A stretch of DNA of 64,000 nucleotides from an uncultured delta proteobacterium (GCA_963737265.1 CAVTRY010000011.1:832001-896000), one strand, 5' to 3'. Positions 50,546 through 64,000 are shown, counted from the first letter of the stretch. Notes: generated by a model from the sequence alone, not told the origin. Numbers and translations are program-made.

Positions 50546-52207
50546 GTGGTTGTTTCAGCTACAGGTCCAATGATTGCGGTCGGCCAAACGATCGGTAACT
50601 ACAACATTACCGCCAAGCTTGGTGAAGGAGGCATGGGTGTCGTCTATCTGGCGGAGCATCCGGTCATCGGCCGCAAGGTTGCCCTCAAGGCGATCCATCC
50701 CGAGCTTTCGCGCAATCCCGAGGTCGTCTCGCGCTTCGTAACCGAGGCCAAGTCGGTCAACCAGATCGGCAACGAGCACATCGTGGATATCCACGATTTC
50801 GGCAATACCTCCGACGGCGAATTCTACTTCATCATGGAGTTTCTCCAGGGCGAGGCACTCTCGGATCGCTTGAAACGCAGCGCGCCGCTCGACGTCAGAC
50901 GCGCCCTTGCAATCGCGGTGCAGGTGACGGATGCCCTCGGCGCCTCGCACCAGCACGGCATTATCCACCGCGATCTCAAGCCCGAGAATATCTATCTCAT
51001 CACCAAGGGTCACGTCCCCGACTTCGTGAAGGTGCTCGACTTCGGTCTGGCCAAGCTGACCATGGGCGACGACAAGGTCAGCCACAAGACACGCACGGGT
51101 TCGGTGATGGGAACGCCGTACTACATGGCGCCCGAACAGTGCGAAGGCAAGGCCAACATCGATCACCGCGCCGACATCTACTCGCTCGGTGTCATTCTGT
51201 TTGAAATGCTGACCGGGAAAGTCCCCTTCGGCGGCGAGGGCTATGGCGAAATCATCGTCAAGCACATCACCAGCGCCGTCCCCTCTCCGCGCGCCATCAA
51301 CCCCCTCCTTCCGCATTCCCTCGAAGCTATTACCCTACGCGCGCTGGCCAAGTCGCGCGAACAGCGCTTCCAGACCATGGAAGAATTCGCCACGGCGCTG
51401 CTGGACCCCGAAAGGTACGCGGCGTCCGCTCCCCATCTCAACGCCACCGTCCTGTCCGTTCCGGCTAGCCAACTCATGGATGTGGCGGAAGCAGACCTGC
51501 CCGACGGTGCGGCCAGTGGGGCGAGCGGTCAGGTCGGGCGCCGCAATCCGGGAGGCACGCTGGCGGGGAACCACAGCCAGGACGTGGGCGCCCACCCTTC
51601 CCCGATGCCATCCACGTTTCGCCGTGCAACCGGCGAGATAGTAGGCGCCGACGATCTTGACGTTGCGGCCAAGCCGCGCCGAACGGGGCTCGTCGCCGCG
51701 ATCGTGGGTGCCGCGGTGATAGCCGGGCTGGCGGCGTACTATTTCACCCAGAAGCCACCGACCTCGACGAGCCCGCCGTCCCAGCCAATCGCCGCCACCG
51801 TTCCTTCGGTCGCGCCGGCGCCAAAAATGGTGAAGCTGAATTTCAAATCCGACCCCTCCGGAGCGGCCGTTCGGCGTCAAGACACAAACGAGCAAATCGG
51901 AATTACGCCGTTCGATGAAGAGCTTCCAACCGGCCAAACCGCCATCGTTTTCCTGTTCAGGAAAGAAAACTTTCGCGACAGGGCTGAATCCTACGTCCCC
52001 ACCCAATCGGGACAACTGGAGGTTGCTCTTCTACCCAATCCGCCGTCGCCTGCGGCGGAGCCGGCTGCGCCGCGAGTTGAAACGAAGCCGTCCTCAAGAT
52101 CCCCGGCCGCCCGGACTAGCGGAGACGGGCGCCACAAGGCGGGCGCTGGCCGTGGCCACCACACTCGAGCGATGGACGAAGACGGCGTCCTACCGCCATC
52201 GTTCTAG
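50546..52207 (+). CDS. Membrane Ser/Thr protein kinase with extracytoplasmic PEGA-like domain (start may be ATG 50570)
   Basis: GEGGMG, HRDLKPEN, DFG, GTPYYMAPE; TM helix; SDPSGAAV...GITP. Confidence 0.9.
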   Translation: MVVSATGPMIAVGQTIGNYNITAKLGEGGMGVVYLAEHPVIGRKVALKAIHPELSRNPEVVSRFVTEAKSVNQIGNEHIVDIHDFGNTSDGEFYFIMEFLQGEALSDRLKRSAPLDVRRALAIAVQVTDALGASHQHGIIHRDLKPENIYLITKGHVPDFVKVLDFGLAKLTMGDDKVSHKTRTGSVMGTPYYMAPEQCEGKANIDHRADIYSLGVILFEMLTGKVPFGGEGYGEIIVKHITSAVPSPRAINPLLPHSLEAITLRALAKSREQRFQTMEEFATALLDPERYAASAPHLNATVLSVPASQLMDVAEADLPDGAASGASGQVGRRNPGGTLAGNHSQDVGAHPSPMPSTFRRATGEIVGADDLDVAAKPRRTGLVAAIVGAAVIAGLAAYYFTQKPPTSTSPPSQPIAATVPSVAPAPKMVKLNFKSDPSGAAVRRQDTNEQIGITPFDEELPTGQTAIVFLFRKENFRDRAESYVPTQSGQLEVALLPNPPSPAAEPAAPRVETKPSSRSPAARTSGDGRHKAGAGRGHHTRAMDEDGVLPPSF

Positions 52208-52283: not shown

Positions 52284-52355
52284 GGGCGTTTAACTCAGCG
52301 GAAGAGTGCCACCTTCACACGGTGGAAGCCGCAGGTTCAATCCCTGCAACGCCCA
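52284..52355 (+). tRNA. tRNA-Val(CAC); probable integration site
   Basis: GGGCGTT acceptor stem, anticodon arm CCACC-TTCACAC-GGTGG, T-loop TTCAATC; integrase stop 18 bp downstream. Confidence 0.93.
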
Positions 52356-52373
52356 CAAGCTAAGTTACTGGAA

Positions 52374-53675
52374 TCACGCGGTTTTCGTGACTAACTTGGC
52401 GCTGTTCTTCTCAGATAAGCCGCCCCCATCACCACCTCGATCACCACTTTGGGGATCACCACCCTCATTTTTTCGAGCCTGGGTGAACCCCGCGAGGGAG
52501 ATCACCTTGGCCAGCCCAGCCCTCACTTCTTCGCCCGCCACAGTGCTGTAGTGCTGCTGCATTTCGGCCGAGGCGTGACCGCTGATCGCGCGCACCACAA
52601 GGTCGTGAACCTGCGCCGCTCGCCCCAGGTCTTGGAACGTGCGCCGCATGAACTTGGCCGTGAGATGTTTGTCGATCTTAGCTGCCTTGGCGATGGCATC
52701 TATGGGTTTCTTCAAACAGGATGCGGCCCGGTAGCCGCCGATCTCGGACGGGAACAGTAGGTCGGATTCCTGCATTGGCCCTTCGGGTAGTCGGTCGACG
52801 TGCCATCGAAGAATGTCGACAAGCTCGCTCGGCAACGGCACCCGCAGCCACCGGATCTTTCCACGCTTCCCTTGCTTGAGCCGTTCCACCACCTCCCCTT
52901 TTGTCTCTGACCTACGCACCAACAGCACCCCCTCTTCCCACAGTACGTCCGGTGTCGACCCCTTCCTTCGCAGTGGCCGCAGTTCCGACGGCCTTCGCCC
53001 GGTAGCCACACCCACCGCCATCATGGCGAAGTGCTGCGGATACAACTCTTTCGCCTTGGCCATGAAGACCGGAACTTCCGCCACCGTCAATGCCCCCGGT
53101 TCCTCCTCGGTAAACGTGTTCCAGTCCGACGTGTCGAGCAGATCCACGTTGCGGGTGGGATCGCGTTCTAGTTCCAGATCCTCCACCGCTGCCCGAAGTG
53201 TGGTGAGCAAGATGGCCAGCCACCCGTTCACCGTGTTCGGGCTGTAGTCGCCCCGCTCGACCTTCCGTCCCTGGACCGCCTTCCACTCCTCGATGTCCTT
53301 CCTCTGGATCGCATCCACGTACCAATCGCCGAACGCCGGAATCAGATGGAGATCCTGCGTGTCCGCCCACCGCTCACGGCTCTTCGCCGACTTGAGGTTT
53401 CCTAGCGCGACCTTTCGCTCGAACAAGGATGTCGCGTAGTCGCCGTACCGTTCTCTTTTGCGAACTTCCCCCAACCTGCCTTGCCGAATCTCGTTCTTCA
53501 GCTCCGCCTGCTTCACTACAGCCTGTTTCTGCGTGATGTTCTCGAACTCCTGATTCCTCTCCTTCAGCATGCCAGTCCTCGGATCTACCGCGCGCACGCG
53601 AACGCGATACCCCGTTGCCGTTTTGTATATGCCCGGATACCTGGTCGGGTTGCACCCGTCTGTCCAAGTCGTCAT
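52374..53675 (-). CDS. Tyrosine recombinase/integrase
   Basis: TGRRPSEL (R), KFMRRT (HxxR position with K), ISGH...QHY (H, Y); SD GAGGAA before ATG 53675. Confidence 0.9.
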   Translation of the reverse strand: MTTWTDGCNPTRYPGIYKTATGYRVRVRAVDPRTGMLKERNQEFENITQKQAVVKQAELKNEIRQGRLGEVRKRERYGDYATSLFERKVALGNLKSAKSRERWADTQDLHLIPAFGDWYVDAIQRKDIEEWKAVQGRKVERGDYSPNTVNGWLAILLTTLRAAVEDLELERDPTRNVDLLDTSDWNTFTEEEPGALTVAEVPVFMAKAKELYPQHFAMMAVGVATGRRPSELRPLRRKGSTPDVLWEEGVLLVRRSETKGEVVERLKQGKRGKIRWLRVPLPSELVDILRWHVDRLPEGPMQESDLLFPSEIGGYRAASCLKKPIDAIAKAAKIDKHLTAKFMRRTFQDLGRAAQVHDLVVRAISGHASAEMQQHYSTVAGEEVRAGLAKVISLAGFTQARKNEGGDPQSGDRGGDGGGLSEKNSAKLVTKTA

Positions 53676-53907
53676 TTCTATGTTCCTCGCCAGGAGCATC
53701 GGGCCGTCCACCGACCATTGTACCTGCTCCATCTGACAGAAAGCGATCTAGCGTCGTGATGAGGTAAACATCGGTGCCGCCGCGCCCGCGCCTGCCGTCC
53801 GGACGCAAGAGGCCACGCATCTTGAGGGTCCGAACGGCTGACGGATGCTTGTATTTCAGGTACTCCGCCGCCTCGGCAGTGGTGAGGTATCGCAATGGCA
53901 CAGGCAT
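53374..53907 (-). CDS. Excisionase-like HTH protein (3' part overlaps the integrase)
   Basis: YLTTAEAAEYL...VRTL...GLL AlpA/Xis-like HTH in the first 60 aa or so. Confidence 0.65.
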   Translation of the reverse strand: MPVPLRYLTTAEAAEYLKYKHPSAVRTLKMRGLLRPDGRRGRGGTDVYLITTLDRFLSDGAGTMVGGRPDAPGEEHRNDDLDRRVQPDQVSGHIQNGNGVSRSRARGRSEDWHAEGEESGVREHHAETGCSEAGGAEERDSARQVGGSSQKRTVRRLRDILVRAKGRARKPQVGEEP

Positions 53908-53924
53908 GGTTGACCTCGGTGACT

Positions 53925-54386
53925 TCATCCTTGTTCGTGGTCATCTGGAGTGATGACAACATCGTCGGGCTCGGCCATGGTCGTGGCGTTCGGCGAAGTG
54001 GGAGTCGTCGTTGCAGGCGTCGCCACCACCATCACCACCACCACCGGCTTTCGCCCGACGTGCCTGACGACCGATACCAGCCCGGCACCTTCAAGGGCCG
54101 AGAGGCCACGCGAGGCCGCATATCGGGAGATCCTCATCCTCGCCATGCCGGTCATGGAGATCGACACCTTGCTGGACCTGGTGAGCCCCACCTCGAACCA
54201 GAGCCGAAGGGCCACGTGCAGGGACTTACCTGGTAGCGCTCCAGCGCGCTCCAGCCATGGCCAAGGGATTGGTCCCTTCAAGAACCTTTCATGTTGCCGT
54301 GGCTTGGGTGGCAGAGGGCGTGCGGGTACCCGCGCGCCGGTGCCACCGACAACTCGCAAGGCGTCGATGTCCACTAGGCGGTCCAC
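53925..54386 (-). CDS. Winged-helix DNA-binding protein
   Basis: FLKGPIPWPWL...ISRYAASRGLSALEGAGLVSV wHTH pattern; closely spaced with polA. Confidence 0.7.
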   Translation of the reverse strand: MDRLVDIDALRVVGGTGARVPARPLPPKPRQHERFLKGPIPWPWLERAGALPGKSLHVALRLWFEVGLTRSSKVSISMTGMARMRISRYAASRGLSALEGAGLVSVVRHVGRKPVVVVMVVATPATTTPTSPNATTMAEPDDVVITPDDHEQG

Positions 54387-54390
54387 AGTC

Positions 54391-56187
54391 CTACCCCTTC
54401 TTGCAGGAAGCGGCTTGGACAGGGGCTACGCCACCGGCCTGCTCCAGTTCTTCGATGATTTCCCAGACCTTGGCCCACATGCTCTCGCCGCGCGGGTCGG
54501 TGAATCGATCCGGGTGGGCAAAGACCTTGGCCTCCGAGCGCAACTCGAACCCACCCAAGACGAGCTTGCTGGCGTCAGCCATCGCCTTCTGGGTTGCAGC
54601 CACGACCTCATCAATCCGCTCGATAGGCGCCATCACAAGTAAGGCGTCGTGGACGGGGGCGCAGACTTCGATGCCCTGCTCGGTTGTGAAGATACTCGCG
54701 AGGCGCAACATCTCGGCTCCGTTGCCTTGCACGGGATGGTTTCGGATCGAACGTGGGTTAGCTTCACCGGCGACATGGATTTCCCACCCGTAGACCGTGG
54801 GCAATGCCCCGGTGAGCATCGCATAGTCGAGAGCGGCGTCTGACCAAGCCCAGAACTTCGGGTAGGTCTGCCGATGGAGGTCGAGCAGACGGCGCGCATG
54901 GGCCACCGACTGTCCAATGCGCACAGCCAGGTTCTCGAAGCCCATCCCGTATTGGACGGCAAGAGCGCAAGCCTTGAATTGTTCGCGTATTTCGCCGTGC
55001 GTACTCTTTGTCGCACTTTCAGGGGCGGCCCCTGCTTGAACCGCGAAGGCGAGGTACGGGTCCCCCGAGTTGTAGGCCAACATCATGGCCGGATCACCGG
55101 ACAGTGCGGCGGCGACCCCGAATTCTTGCTGCTCCCAGTCAACGTAGGCCAGTGCGTACCCTGGCTGTGCCTTCATCAACATGCGCAGCCAAACTGCTGG
55201 CCCGAAAATGAACTCGCTCGTACTGGGTTGGTTCCGGCCCGTCTTGGCCCTGTAGGCGGACAACATGCAGCGGTTTCGGCCATCGGCACCGACCGCAAGA
55301 TCGGCAAGGCGCAACTGCGACAGCGAAGCGCGGAGTTCTTTCATTTCACAAACCTCGGGGTGCATCCGTGCCATGTCCCGAAAAGTATCCGCGTCGAGTG
55401 CCTGAAGGCCGCTGGGCAGTTCAGGCCAGGCTATGTTGTGAGCCTCGGTCCACTTTCGCCACCGTTCGCGCTTGAATGTACCGCCCTCGTAGACGCCGTA
55501 GGACTGATCGACCTTCCGGATGAGCCGCTCTGGTATCGCATCCCACGAGTGACGAAGTCGGCTCAATTCATCCACGCTCACCGGCACGCCAGTTCGCTCC
55601 ATCCTCGCGACGGCTGACATGTAGCGGCCCCGGTGAAGTGCGCGAGGCAAGTCGATGCCAGGTATCATGGTCGGCAACAACTCCGCCAGCGCGGTCACGT
55701 CGGTTTCGCAGTAGGAAATGAGAGCAGATCGCTCCTCAGAAGTATAGGGGCCTCCCCGCAACGCCAGCGTCCTCATCGCCTCTTTTTGCTCCCAACCGAT
55801 AGCTGGCAAGCCGAAATAGGAGAGAGCCCCAAGCAGGCTCGCACCATCTGGCGGCCGAAGCCCATTCGTTCGCACTCGGAACTCGGTGAACAAGTCCAGG
55901 ATGTTGGTGGGGACTGGCCAGTCCAGTGCGAGGTGACAGCCAACCTCGGCGGAGCCGTAGTAGGCCACCATCACCGAGTCGGCGTCCGTGCCATAGGGCG
56001 GGCCATCTGCCCGCCGGAGGTCGTCTTCCCACCAACGGACAGTGTCTCCAGAGATCAGATCGCGCGCCACCAGACAGATCGGCTCGGGCAGTTCGCCAGG
56101 CGCCGAACGAAACTCGAAATCGGCCATCCAAATTTTGAAGATCCCCACCGCCGCAAAAGCGGCACGGACGAAAGCCATGAGGTTCAT
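54391..56187 (-). CDS. Family A DNA polymerase (3'-5' exonuclease plus polymerase; no 5' nuclease)
   Basis: ExoI ADFEF, ExoIII YCETD, TGR, motif A DWEQQE, motif B R...KACALAVQYG, QGNGAE, motif C VHDA. Confidence 0.9.
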   Translation of the reverse strand: MNLMAFVRAAFAAVGIFKIWMADFEFRSAPGELPEPICLVARDLISGDTVRWWEDDLRRADGPPYGTDADSVMVAYYGSAEVGCHLALDWPVPTNILDLFTEFRVRTNGLRPPDGASLLGALSYFGLPAIGWEQKEAMRTLALRGGPYTSEERSALISYCETDVTALAELLPTMIPGIDLPRALHRGRYMSAVARMERTGVPVSVDELSRLRHSWDAIPERLIRKVDQSYGVYEGGTFKRERWRKWTEAHNIAWPELPSGLQALDADTFRDMARMHPEVCEMKELRASLSQLRLADLAVGADGRNRCMLSAYRAKTGRNQPSTSEFIFGPAVWLRMLMKAQPGYALAYVDWEQQEFGVAAALSGDPAMMLAYNSGDPYLAFAVQAGAAPESATKSTHGEIREQFKACALAVQYGMGFENLAVRIGQSVAHARRLLDLHRQTYPKFWAWSDAALDYAMLTGALPTVYGWEIHVAGEANPRSIRNHPVQGNGAEMLRLASIFTTEQGIEVCAPVHDALLVMAPIERIDEVVAATQKAMADASKLVLGGFELRSEAKVFAHPDRFTDPRGESMWAKVWEIIEELEQAGGVAPVQAASCKKG

Positions 56188-56942
56188 ACCTCACCCCTCA
56201 GCTTTCGCAGCACGGGATGATCGAGCGAATCAATCACTCGTCCCCTGACGGCGATACGCACGATCTCGTCCATCGCCAATTCTGGCCACTCTGGATCTGG
56301 AATCTCCCCAACCGCTTCGTACACTTCGTAGGCGCCCAGTGCCATGTTCGCCTGCACGCGCACCCATGCGTGGACTGCACGGGCCGCCGCATCTCTAGCC
56401 GAAGCGTGCCAGTTGTTGATCCGTCCGTCTTCGCCTGGAACTCGCAGCGCCCACAGGAAGAGTGTCCTCTGTCGAGTGATGGTTGGGACGAGTAGCTTGG
56501 GGACCATGTCACCGGGGAAACTGCCGGCAATGTCGGCCGTTCCCACGAATGTCTCCTGTTCATCCACTAGCGTGTACACCAGCATTGGTTCCATCGTGGG
56601 ATGGACCCGAACGAACTCGTTTCTCTTGGGATTTCGGATGGGGATGGTTGTTACGAGCCTCTTGGCCCCCAACTTACTCGCGAAGTCCTGTGATATGCGG
56701 AGCTGCGCGAGCACATCGGGTTCGGCAGGTCTCCTGTTCACGTCGTGCGTGTTGGATGCGCTGCGAGGATCCTGCTCCGCCGTTGGTGGTGCGGCTGTCT
56801 TCTCCGTAGGTGATGGTACGATTGCCGGCTCTGTCGTCACCTTGCCCTCGATCTTGGCGGCTGATGTTCCCTGATCAGGGCCGCTCTCCGGTTCCAATGT
56901 TGTGGTCGTTGTTGATAGTGTCGCCTTGGTCTTGGTGCTCAT
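56184..56942 (-). CDS. Hypothetical protein coupled to polA (candidate ssDNA-binding/replication accessory)
   Basis: Stop overlaps the polA start; SD AAGGAG; disordered N-terminus then an aromatic-rich beta domain. Confidence 0.7.
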   Translation of the reverse strand: MSTKTKATLSTTTTTLEPESGPDQGTSAAKIEGKVTTEPAIVPSPTEKTAAPPTAEQDPRSASNTHDVNRRPAEPDVLAQLRISQDFASKLGAKRLVTTIPIRNPKRNEFVRVHPTMEPMLVYTLVDEQETFVGTADIAGSFPGDMVPKLLVPTITRQRTLFLWALRVPGEDGRINNWHASARDAAARAVHAWVRVQANMALGAYEVYEAVGEIPDPEWPELAMDEIVRIAVRGRVIDSLDHPVLRKLRGEV

Positions 56943-57259
56943 TTCTTGTTCTCCTTGTTGCAGCCGAGACTGTTGATTTCGTCTCGGTGCGAGCACCCAA
57001 ACTACTGTGACTTTTCGACTCCCTTGGTGGGGGGGGAACACCGCTTAGAGGTGGGGGAGATCGACAAAGCACGCACGTATCCCCAAGAAATCGTTGAGGA
57101 TCATTCGTGGGGGGGAACTTTCGCGATTTCTGGGGAAGATCGATCTTGACGGAAAAAGCAGACAATTCCGCGCGTTGGACTGCCGAGATGTTCCGAATCG
57201 CCACCGGCTGCAACACTCTCCCCGACGACGAAAGCCCAAGTCAGACGGTAGAGGTTGGT

Positions 57260-58024
57260 CTACTTTTCGATCTTGCTGCTACCCTTCGGGAAGCCAGTTC
57301 CCTTGACCCGGCCCGAGCCCCAGTTGTCTGGACGAATGATGTTGTCGATGTGATCGGCCACGTCGGGCTTCACTTTCTCCTTGCACACCTTCGTGAGGTA
57401 TTCGCGAACGTCTTCTGTGCGGTGCTTATCCGGACGGGAAGCGGCCTCATCGTAGCCCTTCCAGAACTCACTCACCGCATCCGCCAAGGCATTGAGCTTC
57501 TTGGTCGTGTAAGGCCCCCACGGCCACGTCGGTTGTGGTTCAATCGCTAACTTCTCGAAGTCGTCGGGCAGCCCCCCCCAGACCTCCGCTGACTGTCGCT
57601 TCATATCCTTCGCCCATTTCGCGAATTCACTCAGGCGCACCGTGATGGTCTCGCGGCCATTCCGTTCGGGGACTCGAACCACATCAAATGCCTCACCGGA
57701 CACTCTGGTTGCGATTTCCAGGCGAAGATCGGCTTCCTCAAAACCGTAGCGATCCTCGGGATTGCTCGCATTGTCGAAGTAGTCCTCGTAGCTCTCCGGG
57801 TCCATGTCACACGACAGGAAAACCGCCTCCTCCAATGGAACATGATAGTGCTGGAGACATTTCCACTTGGGCCAGAAGGGCGAAAGAATGTTGGGTTTTG
57901 CAACATCGCTGTTGGGCGTGTTCTCAATTCCCTTGTCGCCCCCTTCGTCCTCCGGTTTTCCCGCTTGAGGCTGGGGCTCCCCTGCGTTCTCCGCTACCTC
58001 GTCTGTCTTGTTTTCCTCGGCCAC
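57260..58024 (-). CDS. Hypothetical protein
   Basis: SD GGAGGT before GTG 58024; 254-aa ORF downstream of the DUF499 gene. Confidence 0.6.
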   Translation of the reverse strand: MAEENKTDEVAENAGEPQPQAGKPEDEGGDKGIENTPNSDVAKPNILSPFWPKWKCLQHYHVPLEEAVFLSCDMDPESYEDYFDNASNPEDRYGFEEADLRLEIATRVSGEAFDVVRVPERNGRETITVRLSEFAKWAKDMKRQSAEVWGGLPDDFEKLAIEPQPTWPWGPYTTKKLNALADAVSEFWKGYDEAASRPDKHRTEDVREYLTKVCKEKVKPDVADHIDNIIRPDNWGSGRVKGTGFPKGSSKIEK

Positions 58025-58075
58025 GGATTCACCTCCCGCACGGGGTTGCGCCGTCTGGACGACTTCCACGACTCG

Positions 58076-61411
<3,336 letters not shown>

Positions 61412-61414
61412 TGG

Positions 61415-64000
61415 CTACTTCTCCTCGAACATCGTGGTCTGCCCCTTGGTGGGCTTGGTGCCTTCGCGGGCCAGGCGAGTGATCTCGGGCCAGCTCTGAA
61501 CCAGGGCGTTGTACGCGAGGGCTTCCTGGGCACGCTTCTTATTGTTGGACATGGTGTAGAGCCGGTACGCCAGCTCGCGGACGACCTCGGCCTTGCTGCC
61601 CATCTTGGCGGCAAGATCTGCCGCCGCGCCTTCACCGCCGGCTTCGAGAACACGAATCAGATGGTGAGCCATCTCCCACACGGTCAGGCGCTCATCGGTG
61701 GTCGGGTCCCAGTCCTCGGGCAACTCTGAAGGCTTGAGCAGCCGTACCTTGCCAGCCTTCGAGGCGAGCACGCCAGCCTCCACCAGACCCGAGACGCTGG
61801 TGTTCTTGGACTTCGACAGTTGTTCCGCCTCGCCGTATCCCGCGCTTGTAAAACCGTACTGCTCAAACCACGTCAGAGCCCAGCGGGTATCGGCGTCGAA
61901 GTCGCCCTCCTGCTCAGCAAGCACTTCGTCGAGGGTCTGGTTGATGAGCGCGAGAGCATCGCGTACCGAAAGCGCCTTCCCCTCGGCGTCCAGCACCTTG
62001 TCATATCGAGTGTAGGCTGCCATGCCTGGTCCAATGACAGCCTGTTGAAGATCCACGGGAGCGATATTGCCGTGCTGAAGGTGAGAGAGCGCAACGGGAA
62101 GTTCGGTCTTGAGCGCTGCCAGAAAATCGCGCCGGGTGGCCGTGGGCGCGTCAGCGGAGCGTTGACGGCAGACGATCACGATGCTGGATGCCAGTACGTT
62201 CTTGCCAGTCTTGACCCCCTGGTCACGCTCCGTCCGCATCGGCCAGGTGCCACTAATGGTGAAACCAGCTCGGAGCACGGCCTCCAGGAAGGTGTCCCAT
62301 CCCGTGCTCACAGTTGCGCTGTCACCGTCCCCTTTACCGTCCTGTTCAGTCTCTGCTTGCTTGTAAGCGTAATAGATAGTGACCGGGAAGGCCGGGTGCG
62401 TCTGCTCCGCAATCCGATGCATAGCGAGTGTCATGCTGTCGAGGAAGAATGCCTCGGCTTTCTGTTTGCCCCCGTGCCTATATGGCGATGCCACCAGTTC
62501 CTCGGTCTTGGGTACGGCAAGAGTCGCGAAAAGGCCGGGGAAGACATGTCTGAGGGAACGGCGTAGCCAAACATAGAAGAAGTCCGACAAGTCGGCGTAA
62601 GCGACGTTGTCATAGTACGGCGGATCTGTCGAAACGACCTTGGAGGCTGAAATGTCTTGTGTCTGAGCATCTGCCTGTGAAACGCATGCGGGATGTGTCA
62701 ATGCGTTGGAAATCGTCGTGCCAATTGAGGACGTGGTGGCTGCAAAATCTCCGGCAGCCCCGGCGAAAGGATTGACCTCGGGAAAGTCCCACGCCATCGG
62801 TATGGCCTGCCGGCTGAACAGATTAACACTCTGCCCTCTGCTTTGTGACCATACCGCTAGGGCATTGACGGTGTTGGTAGTTCGACTGACTGCTAGTCCA
62901 AGGTACACCGCCACGGCCTCGGCGTAGGCAAGGGCTCCACTCCCATTGGCGTCGAGGGGTTTGCCGTCGTCAGATTGGCCGGCGGCAAGAGCGTCGAACT
63001 TCACCTGTTCGCATACTTCCGGTATTAAATCGGAAAACGTCGTCAATGCTACGAGTTGTCGCGGGGTGAAAAGGTCACCGAACTTGTCGAGGCCGTAACT
63101 TAGCGTCCAAAAGTTGCGTGGATCGTTGGGTAATGGTGTCTCAGGCCGCCACGTTGGCTTGGCACTTCGTGCAATCGACTCCATCTCATCAGTCGGCGAC
63201 AAATAGACACGCCCGCGCACGCCTTCAGCAACAATGGCCATCAATCGCTGTCCTATTCTTCCGGCTTTGCCTTCGGCTTTAATGTAGTCAGGTGCAATTG
63301 GCCCCCCCGACATCAAGCACCTAAAATTCGCTCCTCGGGATAGCTTGGTGCCGTTCATTGCGCCCTCCGCATCCCTCGACTTGCCCAGCTTTACGGTGAA
63401 TCGGTAGCTGTCGTTTTCAATTACCGGTTGAATGTAGGCTTCCTTGCCTTCCTTTGTGGATAGAATGAACGTAGATGCCAACGGAACATCCACGCCTGCA
63501 AAAGCCGGGTTTGGGCTCTTCACTGTGCGCACCCATAGCGATGCAATCACAGTAAGCGCCTGGCCGACGAGCGGCTTCAGATCCGGGCGTTCCATTGTCA
63601 TCTCAGTTGTGATCTCAGCCTTCGGGTAGAGATGCCCGACACGCTTTTCAGCCTCGTCACGTATCCACTGGCCGTAGTAGCGCACGTCCTCTGCCAGACC
63701 CTGTGAGCCTCGCCACGTATTCGCAGCTTTTTCTTCTTTGGGCTTCTCCTGCCACTTCGGGTTTACCGGCGGTCGCCCCGCAAACTTGGGCGGGATTTCG
63801 ACCATTGCCTTGCATATGACAATAGCCACTGGGTTCAGATCGCTGGCGAAAGAGTCAAGGCCAAGCCGCTGGGCTTCAAGGGGCAAGGACCCGCCACCCG
63901 CGAATGGATCGTGAAACGCCGGAAGCTTCTTGCGGTTGAACAGCTCCCTGGCACGAGGGTGGTCCACATTCTCGGCGCATGCAGCCCGCCAGCTCTGCCA
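61415..64000 (-). CDS. DUF1156-type adenine DNA methyltransferase (5' end beyond window)
   Basis: DPFAGGGSLPLEA (motif I), SDLNPVA, TDPPYYDN (motif IV); frame open to the window end. Confidence 0.9.
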   Translation of the reverse strand, partial: WQSWRAACAENVDHPRARELFNRKKLPAFHDPFAGGGSLPLEAQRLGLDSFASDLNPVAIVICKAMVEIPPKFAGRPPVNPKWQEKPKEEKAANTWRGSQGLAEDVRYYGQWIRDEAEKRVGHLYPKAEITTEMTMERPDLKPLVGQALTVIASLWVRTVKSPNPAFAGVDVPLASTFILSTKEGKEAYIQPVIENDSYRFTVKLGKSRDAEGAMNGTKLSRGANFRCLMSGGPIAPDYIKAEGKAGRIGQRLMAIVAEGVRGRVYLSPTDEMESIARSAKPTWRPETPLPNDPRNFWTLSYGLDKFGDLFTPRQLVALTTFSDLIPEVCEQVKFDALAAGQSDDGKPLDANGSGALAYAEAVAVYLGLAVSRTTNTVNALAVWSQSRGQSVNLFSRQAIPMAWDFPEVNPFAGAAGDFAATTSSIGTTISNALTHPACVSQADAQTQDISASKVVSTDPPYYDNVAYADLSDFFYVWLRRSLRHVFPGLFATLAVPKTEELVASPYRHGGKQKAEAFFLDSMTLAMHRIAEQTHPAFPVTIYYAYKQAETEQDGKGDGDSATVSTGWDTFLEAVLRAGFTISGTWPMRTERDQGVKTGKNVLASSIVIVCRQRSADAPTATRRDFLAALKTELPVALSHLQHGNIAPVDLQQAVIGPGMAAYTRYDKVLDAEGKALSVRDALALINQTLDEVLAEQEGDFDADTRWALTWFEQYGFTSAGYGEAEQLSKSKNTSVSGLVEAGVLASKAGKVRLLKPSELPEDWDPTTDERLTVWEMAHHLIRVLEAGGEGAAADLAAKMGSKAEVVRELAYRLYTMSNNKKRAQEALAYNALVQSWPEITRLAREGTKPTKGQTTMFEEK

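Follow-up and report, generated by a model that had tools for sequence, protein, structure and literature searches.

Known phage satellites that hold defence hotspots, among them P4-like satellites and phage-inducible chromosomal islands (PICIs), replicate by means of a primase-helicase and have recognisable packaging or capsid-redirecting genes. Pipolins are elements that encode a primer-independent family B DNA polymerase, piPolB (Redrejo-Rodriguez et al., 2017, PMC5695915; Mateo-Caceres and Redrejo-Rodriguez, 2024, PMC11551731). Family A polymerases occur in the CcPol-MP-Cch2 replication operon of SCCmec and in the PolA-SSB (single-stranded DNA-binding protein) pairs of Bacillota islands, which often carry restriction-modification (RM) genes (Bebel et al., 2020, PMC7581432; Rice, 2023, PMC10061031). 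Here we describe an integrative island of about 31.2 kb in an uncultured delta proteobacterium. It is inserted in a tRNA-Val gene, carries a family A polymerase gene (PolA) between two small partner genes, and begins in a 64,000-nucleotide stretch of DNA (the window; GCA_963737265.1 CAVTRY010000011.1:832001-896000). Coordinates refer to the window unless another contig or locus is named. The most probable explanation, to which we assign a probability of roughly 60%, is that the island is intact and combines a phage-type PolA replicon of the CHEAP subfamily with defence cargo, and that it is derived from a phage, possibly as a satellite, with the structural genes swapped for defence genes.

CHEAP is cluster #15 of the family A polymerases and the subfamily closest to SCCmec CcPol (Czernecki et al., 2023, PMC10201439). 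The available part of that paper describes CHEAP enzymes as bacterial, cellular proteins that do not replace Pol I, keep all motifs, have a leucine at position B3 and have "no known partners". The CHEAP enzyme of I. dechloratans extended primers more strongly and faster than the Klenow fragment and had a strong exonuclease.

The polymerase of the island resembles these enzymes in its length of about 600 aa, in the combination of a 3'-5' exonuclease and a polymerase domain without a 5' nuclease, in its preserved motifs, in the leucine of motif B and in the presence of a host Pol I alongside. It departs from the published CHEAP picture, in which the enzymes are cellular, partnerless and, in the available part of the paper, without gene context (PMC10201439): here the gene belongs to an island and stands in a mobile-element or phage operon with two conserved partners and an integrase. 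As in the CcPol-MP system, a family A polymerase on an integrative island is accompanied by a small adjacent protein that binds it, the binding being predicted in our case. Unlike CcPol-MP-Cch2, no helicase gene adjoins the trio of partner, PolA and winged-helix genes on the island, and none of replicative type was found in the scanned open reading frames (ORFs) of its relatives. The partner gene lies upstream of PolA, not between polymerase and helicase genes, and its product has about 200 aa instead of being a small OB (oligonucleotide/oligosaccharide-binding) barrel. It is predicted to dock by an N-terminal peptide on the fingers/palm side of the polymerase, whereas in the CcPol system docking is on a truncated exonuclease domain. 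The island polymerase has a complete exonuclease, and the island uses a tyrosine integrase at a tRNA gene in a bacterium outside the Bacillota, in contrast to the serine recombinase at rlmH or ssrA of the CcPol islands.

With pipolins the island shares integration, direct-repeat flanks and a defence-rich cargo. It differs from them in the polymerase family (A, not B), in having two dedicated partner genes and in a core that it has in common with terminase-bearing phages; by analogy, pipolins can be seen as the functional counterpart with PolB. Like satellites, the island has an integrase, replication genes of its own, defence cargo and a repressor/anti-repressor pair, and it has no structural genes. 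Unlike in P4-like satellites and PICIs, no primase-helicase, packaging or capsid-redirecting gene was recognised on it. A literature search of partial coverage, which is no proof of absence, found no paper describing this class of element. The CHEAP enzymes were already known, as were PolA-SSB modules on Bacillota islands, with a helicase, another partner, another interface and a serine recombinase. New here are a fully delimited example of the defence-island form, 31 kb long, the coupling of the trio with xis and int in what looks like one operon, an interface predicted to be mediated by a peptide, and the link to phages.

Boundaries and gene content of the island

The integration target is a tRNA-Val gene with anticodon CAC (52284..52356, plus strand; ARAGORN). 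The left end of the island, attL (52314..52357), is a 44-bp core made up of the 3' part of the tRNA gene and one further nucleotide. A first-pass annotation of the window had suggested looking for a second att site downstream. An exact-match search of the following 200 kb identified a single exact copy of the core, attR, at positions 915549-915592 of contig C11 (window-equivalent 83549-83592), 31.2 kb from attL and 19.5 kb past the window end. The sequences flanking attL and attR differ on both sides of the cores. A composite of tandem islands was also considered and rejected for now, because no degenerate copy of the core was present between the two with up to 9 mismatches allowed.

Gene order was established from an ORF map and from Pfam, PADLOC and PHROGs matches. 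From attL, the genes encode the integrase (Int), an excisionase-like protein (Xis-like), a winged-helix protein with a winged helix-turn-helix (wHTH) fold, PolA, the partner protein, a 269-aa protein, HmaC, HmaB and HmaA. Then come three proteins without a family, a SIR2-domain protein, a DUF6338 protein, a GmrSD_N protein and two further proteins without a family. Toward attR lies a DUF3560-methyltransferase, followed by a protein that weakly matches an Arc-like repressor (E 3.8e-4), by an anti-repressor of the ORF6N type (E 5e-24) and by small ORFs; a 291-aa protein without a family comes last. About ten ORFs of the element match no family. All genes of the co-oriented block of hypothetical protein, PolA, wHTH, xis and int that had been described beside tRNA-Val and defence cargo are therefore present, with Hma directly following.

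The first-pass annotation had seen no primase, helicase, relaxase or capsid gene in 11.6 kb. This extends to the full 31.2 kb, where scans of all ORFs with Pfam, PADLOC and PHROGs gave no primase, replicative helicase, relaxase, terminase, portal or capsid family. The sole helicase of the element is HmaA, a defence SNF2 helicase 8 kb from the trio. The element encodes no PolB, its only polymerase being the family A enzyme. The Pfam and PHROGs scans recognised no small terminase, capsid-redirecting, packaging-signal or conjugation gene either. In having no terminase, portal, capsid or tail genes by these two libraries, the element is unlike a temperate tailed phage; such genes are found in related viral contigs.

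The core operon

Five co-oriented core genes lie on the minus strand directly after tRNA-Val. The tyrosine integrase gene (52374..53732, 452 aa; PF00589 E 6.8e-10, phrog_1 E 5e-33) ends with a stop codon 17 nt from the tRNA 3' end. It is preceded by the excisionase-like helix-turn-helix (HTH) ORF (53374..53928, minus strand), taken from the ORF list and with homologous ORFs in the related loci L003 and L053. The first ~65 aa of this ORF (53733-53928) look AlpA/HTH_17-like by eye and gave no Pfam match above threshold; the HTH part is 45% identical to the ORFs at the same position in L003 (E 2e-9) and L053 (E 1e-9) by tblastn. Next come the genes for the winged-helix protein (53925..54386, 153 aa), PolA (54391..56187, 598 aa) and the partner protein (56184..56942, 252 aa), all on the minus strand.

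Overlaps of 4 nt join the partner stop codon to the PolA start codon and the wHTH stop codon to the xis start codon, and 4 nt separate PolA from the wHTH gene. The five genes therefore look, by their spacing, like one translationally coupled operon, which would be fed from the 317-bp intergenic region upstream (56943..57259). This region contains three C-rich 12-nt repeats (GTTCCCCCCCAC type) and is a candidate promoter, operator or origin. A similar triple repeat is present in the close relative L053. The number of sigma-70-like promoter sites between 52300 and 58200 was 0.

Two features of the assembled sequence concern the operon. The excisionase-like frame stays open for 184 codons, to 53374, and has ~360 nt in common with the integrase gene, which is read in a different frame; L003 is likewise without a nearby stop in this frame. 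The overlap may be real, or it may reflect a site of frameshifting or an indel in the assembly. In the contig of one sequencing run (X1), one base is missing at 57029 (region 57023-57037), in a G/C homopolymer within the C-rich repeat, and the assembled length of that repeat may be uncertain. A 94-aa ORF at 53678-53962 was dropped as non-coding in appearance, the xis-like ORF being in a different frame.

The AlphaFold2 (AF2) model of the winged-helix protein (pLDDT 85) shows three helices and a beta-hairpin. Foldseek returned no PDB match at E <=0.001; the best matches (CodY, ArsR/SmtB and plasmid RepA N-terminal domains) all had E >=0.02 and point to a generic winged helix.

The polymerase

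The 598-aa polymerase combines a family A polymerase domain (PF00476 E 3e-21) with a 3'-5' exonuclease domain and has no 5' nuclease domain. In a HMMER alignment, residues 333-537 match the Taq polymerase domain, covering motifs A, B and C. Eight residues (D23, E25, D163, D350, K405, L409, H513 and D514) are invariant in 42 aligned members. D23 and E25 correspond to Exo I, D163 together with Y159 to Exo III, D350 to motif A, K405 and Y413 to motif B, and H513 and D514 to motif C, all being invariant or nearly so; in Exo II the protein has E81 where most PolAs have an aspartate. L409 aligns with Taq F667, from which we infer that it is the B3 position of PMC10201439. The host retains a canonical polA of its own (TIGR00593, 928 bits; C11:463343-466057).

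The first-pass annotation had suspected a little-described, PolA-based class of elements. The polymerase itself is not of an undescribed kind, as it matches the published CHEAP subfamily (PMC10201439): when the rows of the I. dechloratans CHEAP gene printed in the supplement are translated by eye, its last ~190 codons, together with two stretches further inside, closely follow the family consensus. On this sequence likeness we file the window polymerase as a CHEAP member. It is likely to be active, because its catalytic residues are invariant across the 42 sequences and because the subfamily that it matches is enzymatically active.

A match to the PADLOC model RTasPolA (DRT) was obtained with E 1.1e-21. 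It spans only model positions 275-462 of 475, the generic palm/fingers core of a polymerase, and no reverse transcriptase is present; we therefore rejected a DRT identity.

In isolated phages (50,697 records), the best identity to PolA was 24.5%, and no place covered 80% of the query. Among 72,556 plasmids, the best identity among the matches listed was 25.7% (29.4% over short partial matches), again with no place covering 80%. In five related loci the PolA frame is longer, at 740-918 aa (L009:9977-12268, L010:9983-12205, L046:9968-12277, L062:9749-12505 and L082:8623-10950). In L010 the match to the window PolA is split into two pieces, which suggests an insertion, and in L009, L062 and L082 the frame may continue into the wHTH gene, suggesting a possible fusion.

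The partner protein and its predicted complex with the polymerase

A protein identical to the 252-aa partner is present in a public collection. The partner matched no family in Pfam, PHROGs, NCBIfam or PADLOC, and a profile search found homologues in 5290 representative clusters at E <=0.001. Alignment and AF2 modelling divide it into a variable, disordered N-terminus, a near-invariant LRxSQDF peptide (residues ~77-95) and a beta-rich domain (~100-252). The conserved domain has ~150 residues and pLDDT above 87.

The earlier suggestion that the 252-aa protein is an SSB or priming factor fared unevenly. A fold of the SSB type is faintly indicated. Foldseek gave no PDB match at E <=0.001, and the ESM Atlas gave no usable match. 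The best VIA-align rows were all OB folds or single-stranded DNA (ssDNA) binders, namely the BRCA2 OB domain (Z 4.2), RB69 gp32 (Z 4.0, 130 residues), T4 gp32 (Z 3.9), PRD1 P12 and RPA, all under Z 5 and thus in the range below 8 in which, as the tool warns, a match may reflect a common arrangement only. Binding to the polymerase came out more clearly. The model of the partner-PolA complex had an ipSAE of 0.79 (runs 0.79, 0.81 and 0.79), against 0.00 for the best of 3 controls. Among solved complexes, 116 of 157 attained this ipSAE mark, as did 2 of 215 mismatched pairs, counts that are only rough since custom alignments were used. The runs shared at least 80% of contacts, with partner pLDDT of at least 70.

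In the predicted complex, the LRxSQDF peptide (partner residues 77-95) lies on PolA residues 447-467, 485-496 and 542-545. The interface includes the most conserved residues of both proteins, L81, R82, Q85 and F87 of the partner and W446, W448, G467 and W468 of PolA. The partner is thus predicted by modelling to bind the polymerase via this peptide.

Conservation of the trio in related loci and its link to phages

We collected 105 related loci, 10 from species genomes, 15 from IMG/VR and 80 from metagenomes, and scored them with custom hidden Markov models (HMMs). The partner gene was directly upstream of PolA in 79 of the 82 loci with enough upstream sequence. Of 93 testable loci, 89 had the wHTH gene immediately after PolA; the wHTH HMM was built from 57 first-round phmmer hits in the same loci, and these 57 match by construction. 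Where each side was covered by at least 3 kb, a tyrosine integrase was present in 16 of 19 loci. Of the five-gene block that the first-pass annotation wished to see tested for conservation, the part made up of partner, PolA and wHTH is thus conserved across phyla. Two layouts were found: cargo, partner, PolA, wHTH, int and tRNA, as in the window, and tRNA, int, small genes, partner, PolA and wHTH. Two relatives could be delimited, L082 with 9.8 kb (38-bp exact repeat) and L009 with ~9.1 kb (59-bp repeat, 85% identity).

Pfam scans covered 105 ORFs of 8 loci and then 226 ORFs (112 + 114) of at least 200 aa outside the core, L047 being omitted as a near-copy of L045. Defence cargo lay upstream of the partner gene in several loci: Hma in L003 and L065, type I RM in L010, L074 and L099, DarTG in L010 and BREX in L083. 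A large Eco57I-type (type IIG-like) methylase was upstream of the partner gene in L062. Elsewhere, BREX genes (BrxC/D, PglZ) were downstream of PolA in L004, a TIR protein was downstream of the core in L106, and Mrr was found in L006 and L095. Neither the scanned ORFs of the relatives nor the island itself contained a DnaB, DnaG/Toprim, AEP primase, D5/P4-type or rolling-circle Rep family. The helicase matches in relatives were BREX-linked (L004), HsdR (L010, L074, L099) or, in one case, a UvrD fragment at a contig end (L077).

A large terminase gene lay 1-2.5 kb downstream of the wHTH gene in 9 of the 15 IMG/VR loci (L038-L042, L048-L050, L052), one of which, L038, also had a protease-capsid gene. 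A further locus, L051, contained baseplate, amidase (lysis) and dUTPase genes. The trio thus stands beside a terminase or other phage structural genes in 10 of the 15 IMG/VR contigs, and we therefore regard it as a phage-type replication module, which is also found in small integrative elements and in larger defence islands without structural genes. The metagenome loci, many of them on short contigs, gave a terminase match in 1 of 80 only (L091, weak). The module is shared with (pro)phages and so does not represent a purely non-viral, pipolin-like class; the first-pass annotation had named homologous loci that routinely include a phage structural module as evidence against its reading, and the IMG/VR contigs in part provide such evidence.

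In a FastTree phylogeny of 97 PolAs, most phage forms belonged to a single clade (support 99) and to long branches that split off deeply, and the window PolA grouped with L003 and L053, apart from the main phage clade. The tree was midpoint-rooted and its root is arbitrary; a derivation of the islands from phages is therefore not established by the tree.

These data bear on the idea that the trio is a device for DNA repair, defence or counter-defence, filling gaps after recombination or copying invading DNA, and is carried as cargo. We hold this to be very improbable. It would agree with the position of the trio beside defence systems here and in about ten relatives, with the RTasPolA match, and with the published name, which treats the enzymes as cellular auxiliary polymerases (PMC10201439, in its available part). 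But the RTasPolA match covers only the generic polymerase core, and the trio also occurs where Pfam shows no defence family, such as in the ~9-kb element L009 and in L121, where host genes (an MFS transporter and a molybdopterin enzyme) lie within ~2 kb downstream of the core. In phages the trio precedes the terminase, the usual place of a replication module, and the proofreading exonuclease is conserved. The trio fits the replicase of an element better than a repair or defence enzyme, because it is coupled with xis and int, precedes the packaging genes in phages and keeps proofreading.

A spread of the island as a phage satellite, which had kept only its integration and replication genes and travels in the capsids of helper phages, perhaps phages with a related trio, is a narrower proposal. 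The cargo would then guard host and island against other phages, as in P4-like satellites and PICIs. The trio in terminase- or structural-gene-bearing contigs argues for it, as do the lack of conjugation and structural genes in the complete element, the Arc-like repressor and ORF6N anti-repressor near attR, the spread of the PolA family across phyla, and L082 and L009, which are too small for phages. Yet a packaging or capsid-redirecting gene was not recognised, element sizes from ~6 to 31 kb are hard to fit to one capsid size, the window PolA lies in a clade separate from the one with most phage forms, and no helper is known. We consider this specific route unlikely, with perhaps one chance in several that it applies.

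Distribution and mobility

Among 13 genomes of the genus, this one alone yielded the PolA gene; the gene was detected in 2 of 61 relatives and, at the level of the phylum, in 16 of 401 genomes. Beyond these, the searches gave at least 7977 PolA matches, thousands of them about 60% identical and from very different sources. The metagenome-assembled genomes (MAGs) that carry PolA include Myxococcales, Nitrospinota, Acidobacteriota, Phycisphaerae, Gemmataceae and Planctomycetaceae, and the PolAs of the Nitrospinota, Acidobacteriota and Planctomycetota loci L004, L005, L007, L009 and L010 are 54-59% identical to that of the window. The closest relative is L003 from another MAG, with a PolA that is 89% identical, a near-identical core and the same Hma neighbours.

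The tRNA-Val site is variably occupied across the genus: two genomes have no integrase there, and two have other integrases (52% and 32% identical) and no PolA. The site is therefore a hotspot. In one genome of the same genus (G012, contig C72), a copy of tRNA-Val is followed by two further 44-bp cores, ~10 and 15 kb apart (L016:1975-2018, L016:12306-12349 and L017:10018-10061), with the 32%-identical integrase and without PolA. These cores mark islands arranged in tandem at that hotspot. In run X1, loose ends at 52314 and 52357 were looked at as a junction signal and rejected, being the flanks of the attR contig itself.

It might be argued that the island is a decaying prophage remnant, immobile and not replicating, in which trio and integrase are left over, the structural genes are lost and defence genes joined later at the tRNA hotspot. 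Such a history would be in keeping with the existence of phage relatives, with the other integrases and the three-core genome at tRNA-Val, and with a right flank that is not kept in the genus immediately beyond the island. The exact 44-bp repeats without an internal att remnant argue against it, as do core genes that are all intact and overlapping and keep their invariant residues. The same holds for L003, with its near-identical core and Hma neighbours in another MAG, and for the hundreds of small copies across phyla that keep the trio without structural genes. In our view decay is improbable.

Cargo and neighbouring features

Besides the Hma system, the cargo comprises the SIR2-domain protein, a type IV enzyme that resembles GmrSD, and an orphan DUF3560-methylase. 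The Hma system is complete, with hmaA, hmaB and hmaC adjacent and on one strand. HmaC combines HEPN_Swt1 with a DUF499 ATPase (58076..61411, minus strand; PADLOC E 0, 1142.7 bits; PF18731, PF04465). HmaB is a DNA adenine methylase (DUF1156; PADLOC E 0, 1314.1 bits) whose gene (61415..64000, minus strand) is cut by the window end and runs in full to window-equivalent 64315. The HmaA helicase gene lies outside the window (L001:12506-16084; PADLOC E 0, 1651 bits). Between the core operon and Hma is the gene of the 269-aa protein (57260..58069, minus strand), which has no family in four libraries and no relative in loci L003-L012.

The DUF3560 domain and an adenine-methyltransferase-like domain are joined in one 638-aa protein (L002:10864-12780; window-equivalent 78864-80780), for which PADLOC also gives a mad2 match. 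This protein could serve the island as an orphan methylase, possibly with a role against restriction. Just left of the tRNA gene, a gene for a 553-aa Ser/Thr protein kinase (50546-52207) keeps its position in the genus; it shows which side of attL is chromosomal. To the right of attR, by ~2.7 kb, lies a ~530-bp stretch (L002:16263-16794; C11 916263-916794) of which 24 copies with 98-100% identity are spread across the genome; other members of the genus contain it in diverged or partial form. This stretch probably represents a small transposable element of the non-autonomous kind.

Discussion

Building on the established gene content and boundaries of the island, the conservation of its family, its membership in an active subfamily and the predicted polymerase-partner interface, we infer how excision, circle replication, the roles of the partners and transfer may be arranged. 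A signal would de-repress the operon from the 317-bp upstream region. Xis and Int would then excise the element as a circle by recombining the 44-bp cores, and the winged-helix protein would mark a site on the element. The polymerase, tethered to its putative ssDNA-binding partner through the LRxSQDF peptide, would copy the circle, with a helicase drawn from the host as needed or by strand-displacement synthesis. Replication may start, and the duplex may be opened, in one of three ways: priming by the polymerase-partner complex as in CcPol-MP (PMC7581432, PMC10061031, in the parts available), strand displacement, and a host helicase or primase recruited at a site bound by the winged-helix protein.

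A number of results weigh against the reading of the island as an intact, phage-type CHEAP replicon. A precise empty site was not found in the genus, where the left flank (kinase and tRNA) is kept and the right flank is not syntenic or lies on other contigs. The assembled contigs of 4 runs contained no attP or empty-site junction, and terminal overlaps of 15-200 nt, which would mark circular contigs, were present in 0 of the 105 related loci; no excised circle and no excess in copy number were seen. In place of the usual HDE, motif C has HDA in all 42 aligned members (PolA residues 513-515, window 54647-54655); the I. dechloratans enzyme also has HDA there, according to our by-eye translation of the supplement rows. 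The CHEAP assignment itself was made from that translation of printed rows, with no aligner. The OB/SSB likeness of the partner is weak (best Z 4.2), and the winged-helix fold fits an initiator and a repressor alike. The repeats upstream of the operon are not enriched in the family: a 10-mer occurs at least three times ahead of the partner gene in 14 of 72 loci, and coding-region controls give 21 of 72. No origin was identified.

A more far-reaching version of the replicon can be put forward tentatively, and we consider it possible with the odds clearly against it. A CHEAP polymerase and its peptide-tethered, OB-like partner would form a self-sufficient mini-replisome, starting chains without a primase as CcPol-MP does and displacing strands without a helicase, with the winged-helix protein choosing the start site. 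This would be the family A counterpart of the piPolB replicon, common to phages, small integrative elements and defence islands from many bacterial phyla that together make up a very large family without a name.

If the reading of the island as a phage-type CHEAP replicon is right, CHEAP polymerases would have to be recast, not as cellular and partnerless enzymes, but as the enzymes that replicate a huge family of phages and mobile elements, with at least 7977 PolA matches and 5290 partner clusters. The two partner genes without a family name would be obligate companions of CHEAP PolA, and the three small genes would form a candidate replication system with neither primase nor helicase genes. 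A partner that tethers a fast, proofreading enzyme to ssDNA could have practical value. For the bacteria that carry them, these islands would be a polymerase-based defence platform beside the pipolins, carrying Hma, BREX, type I RM and DarTG and linked to phages, and such a platform would bear on how defence systems travel between distant phyla.

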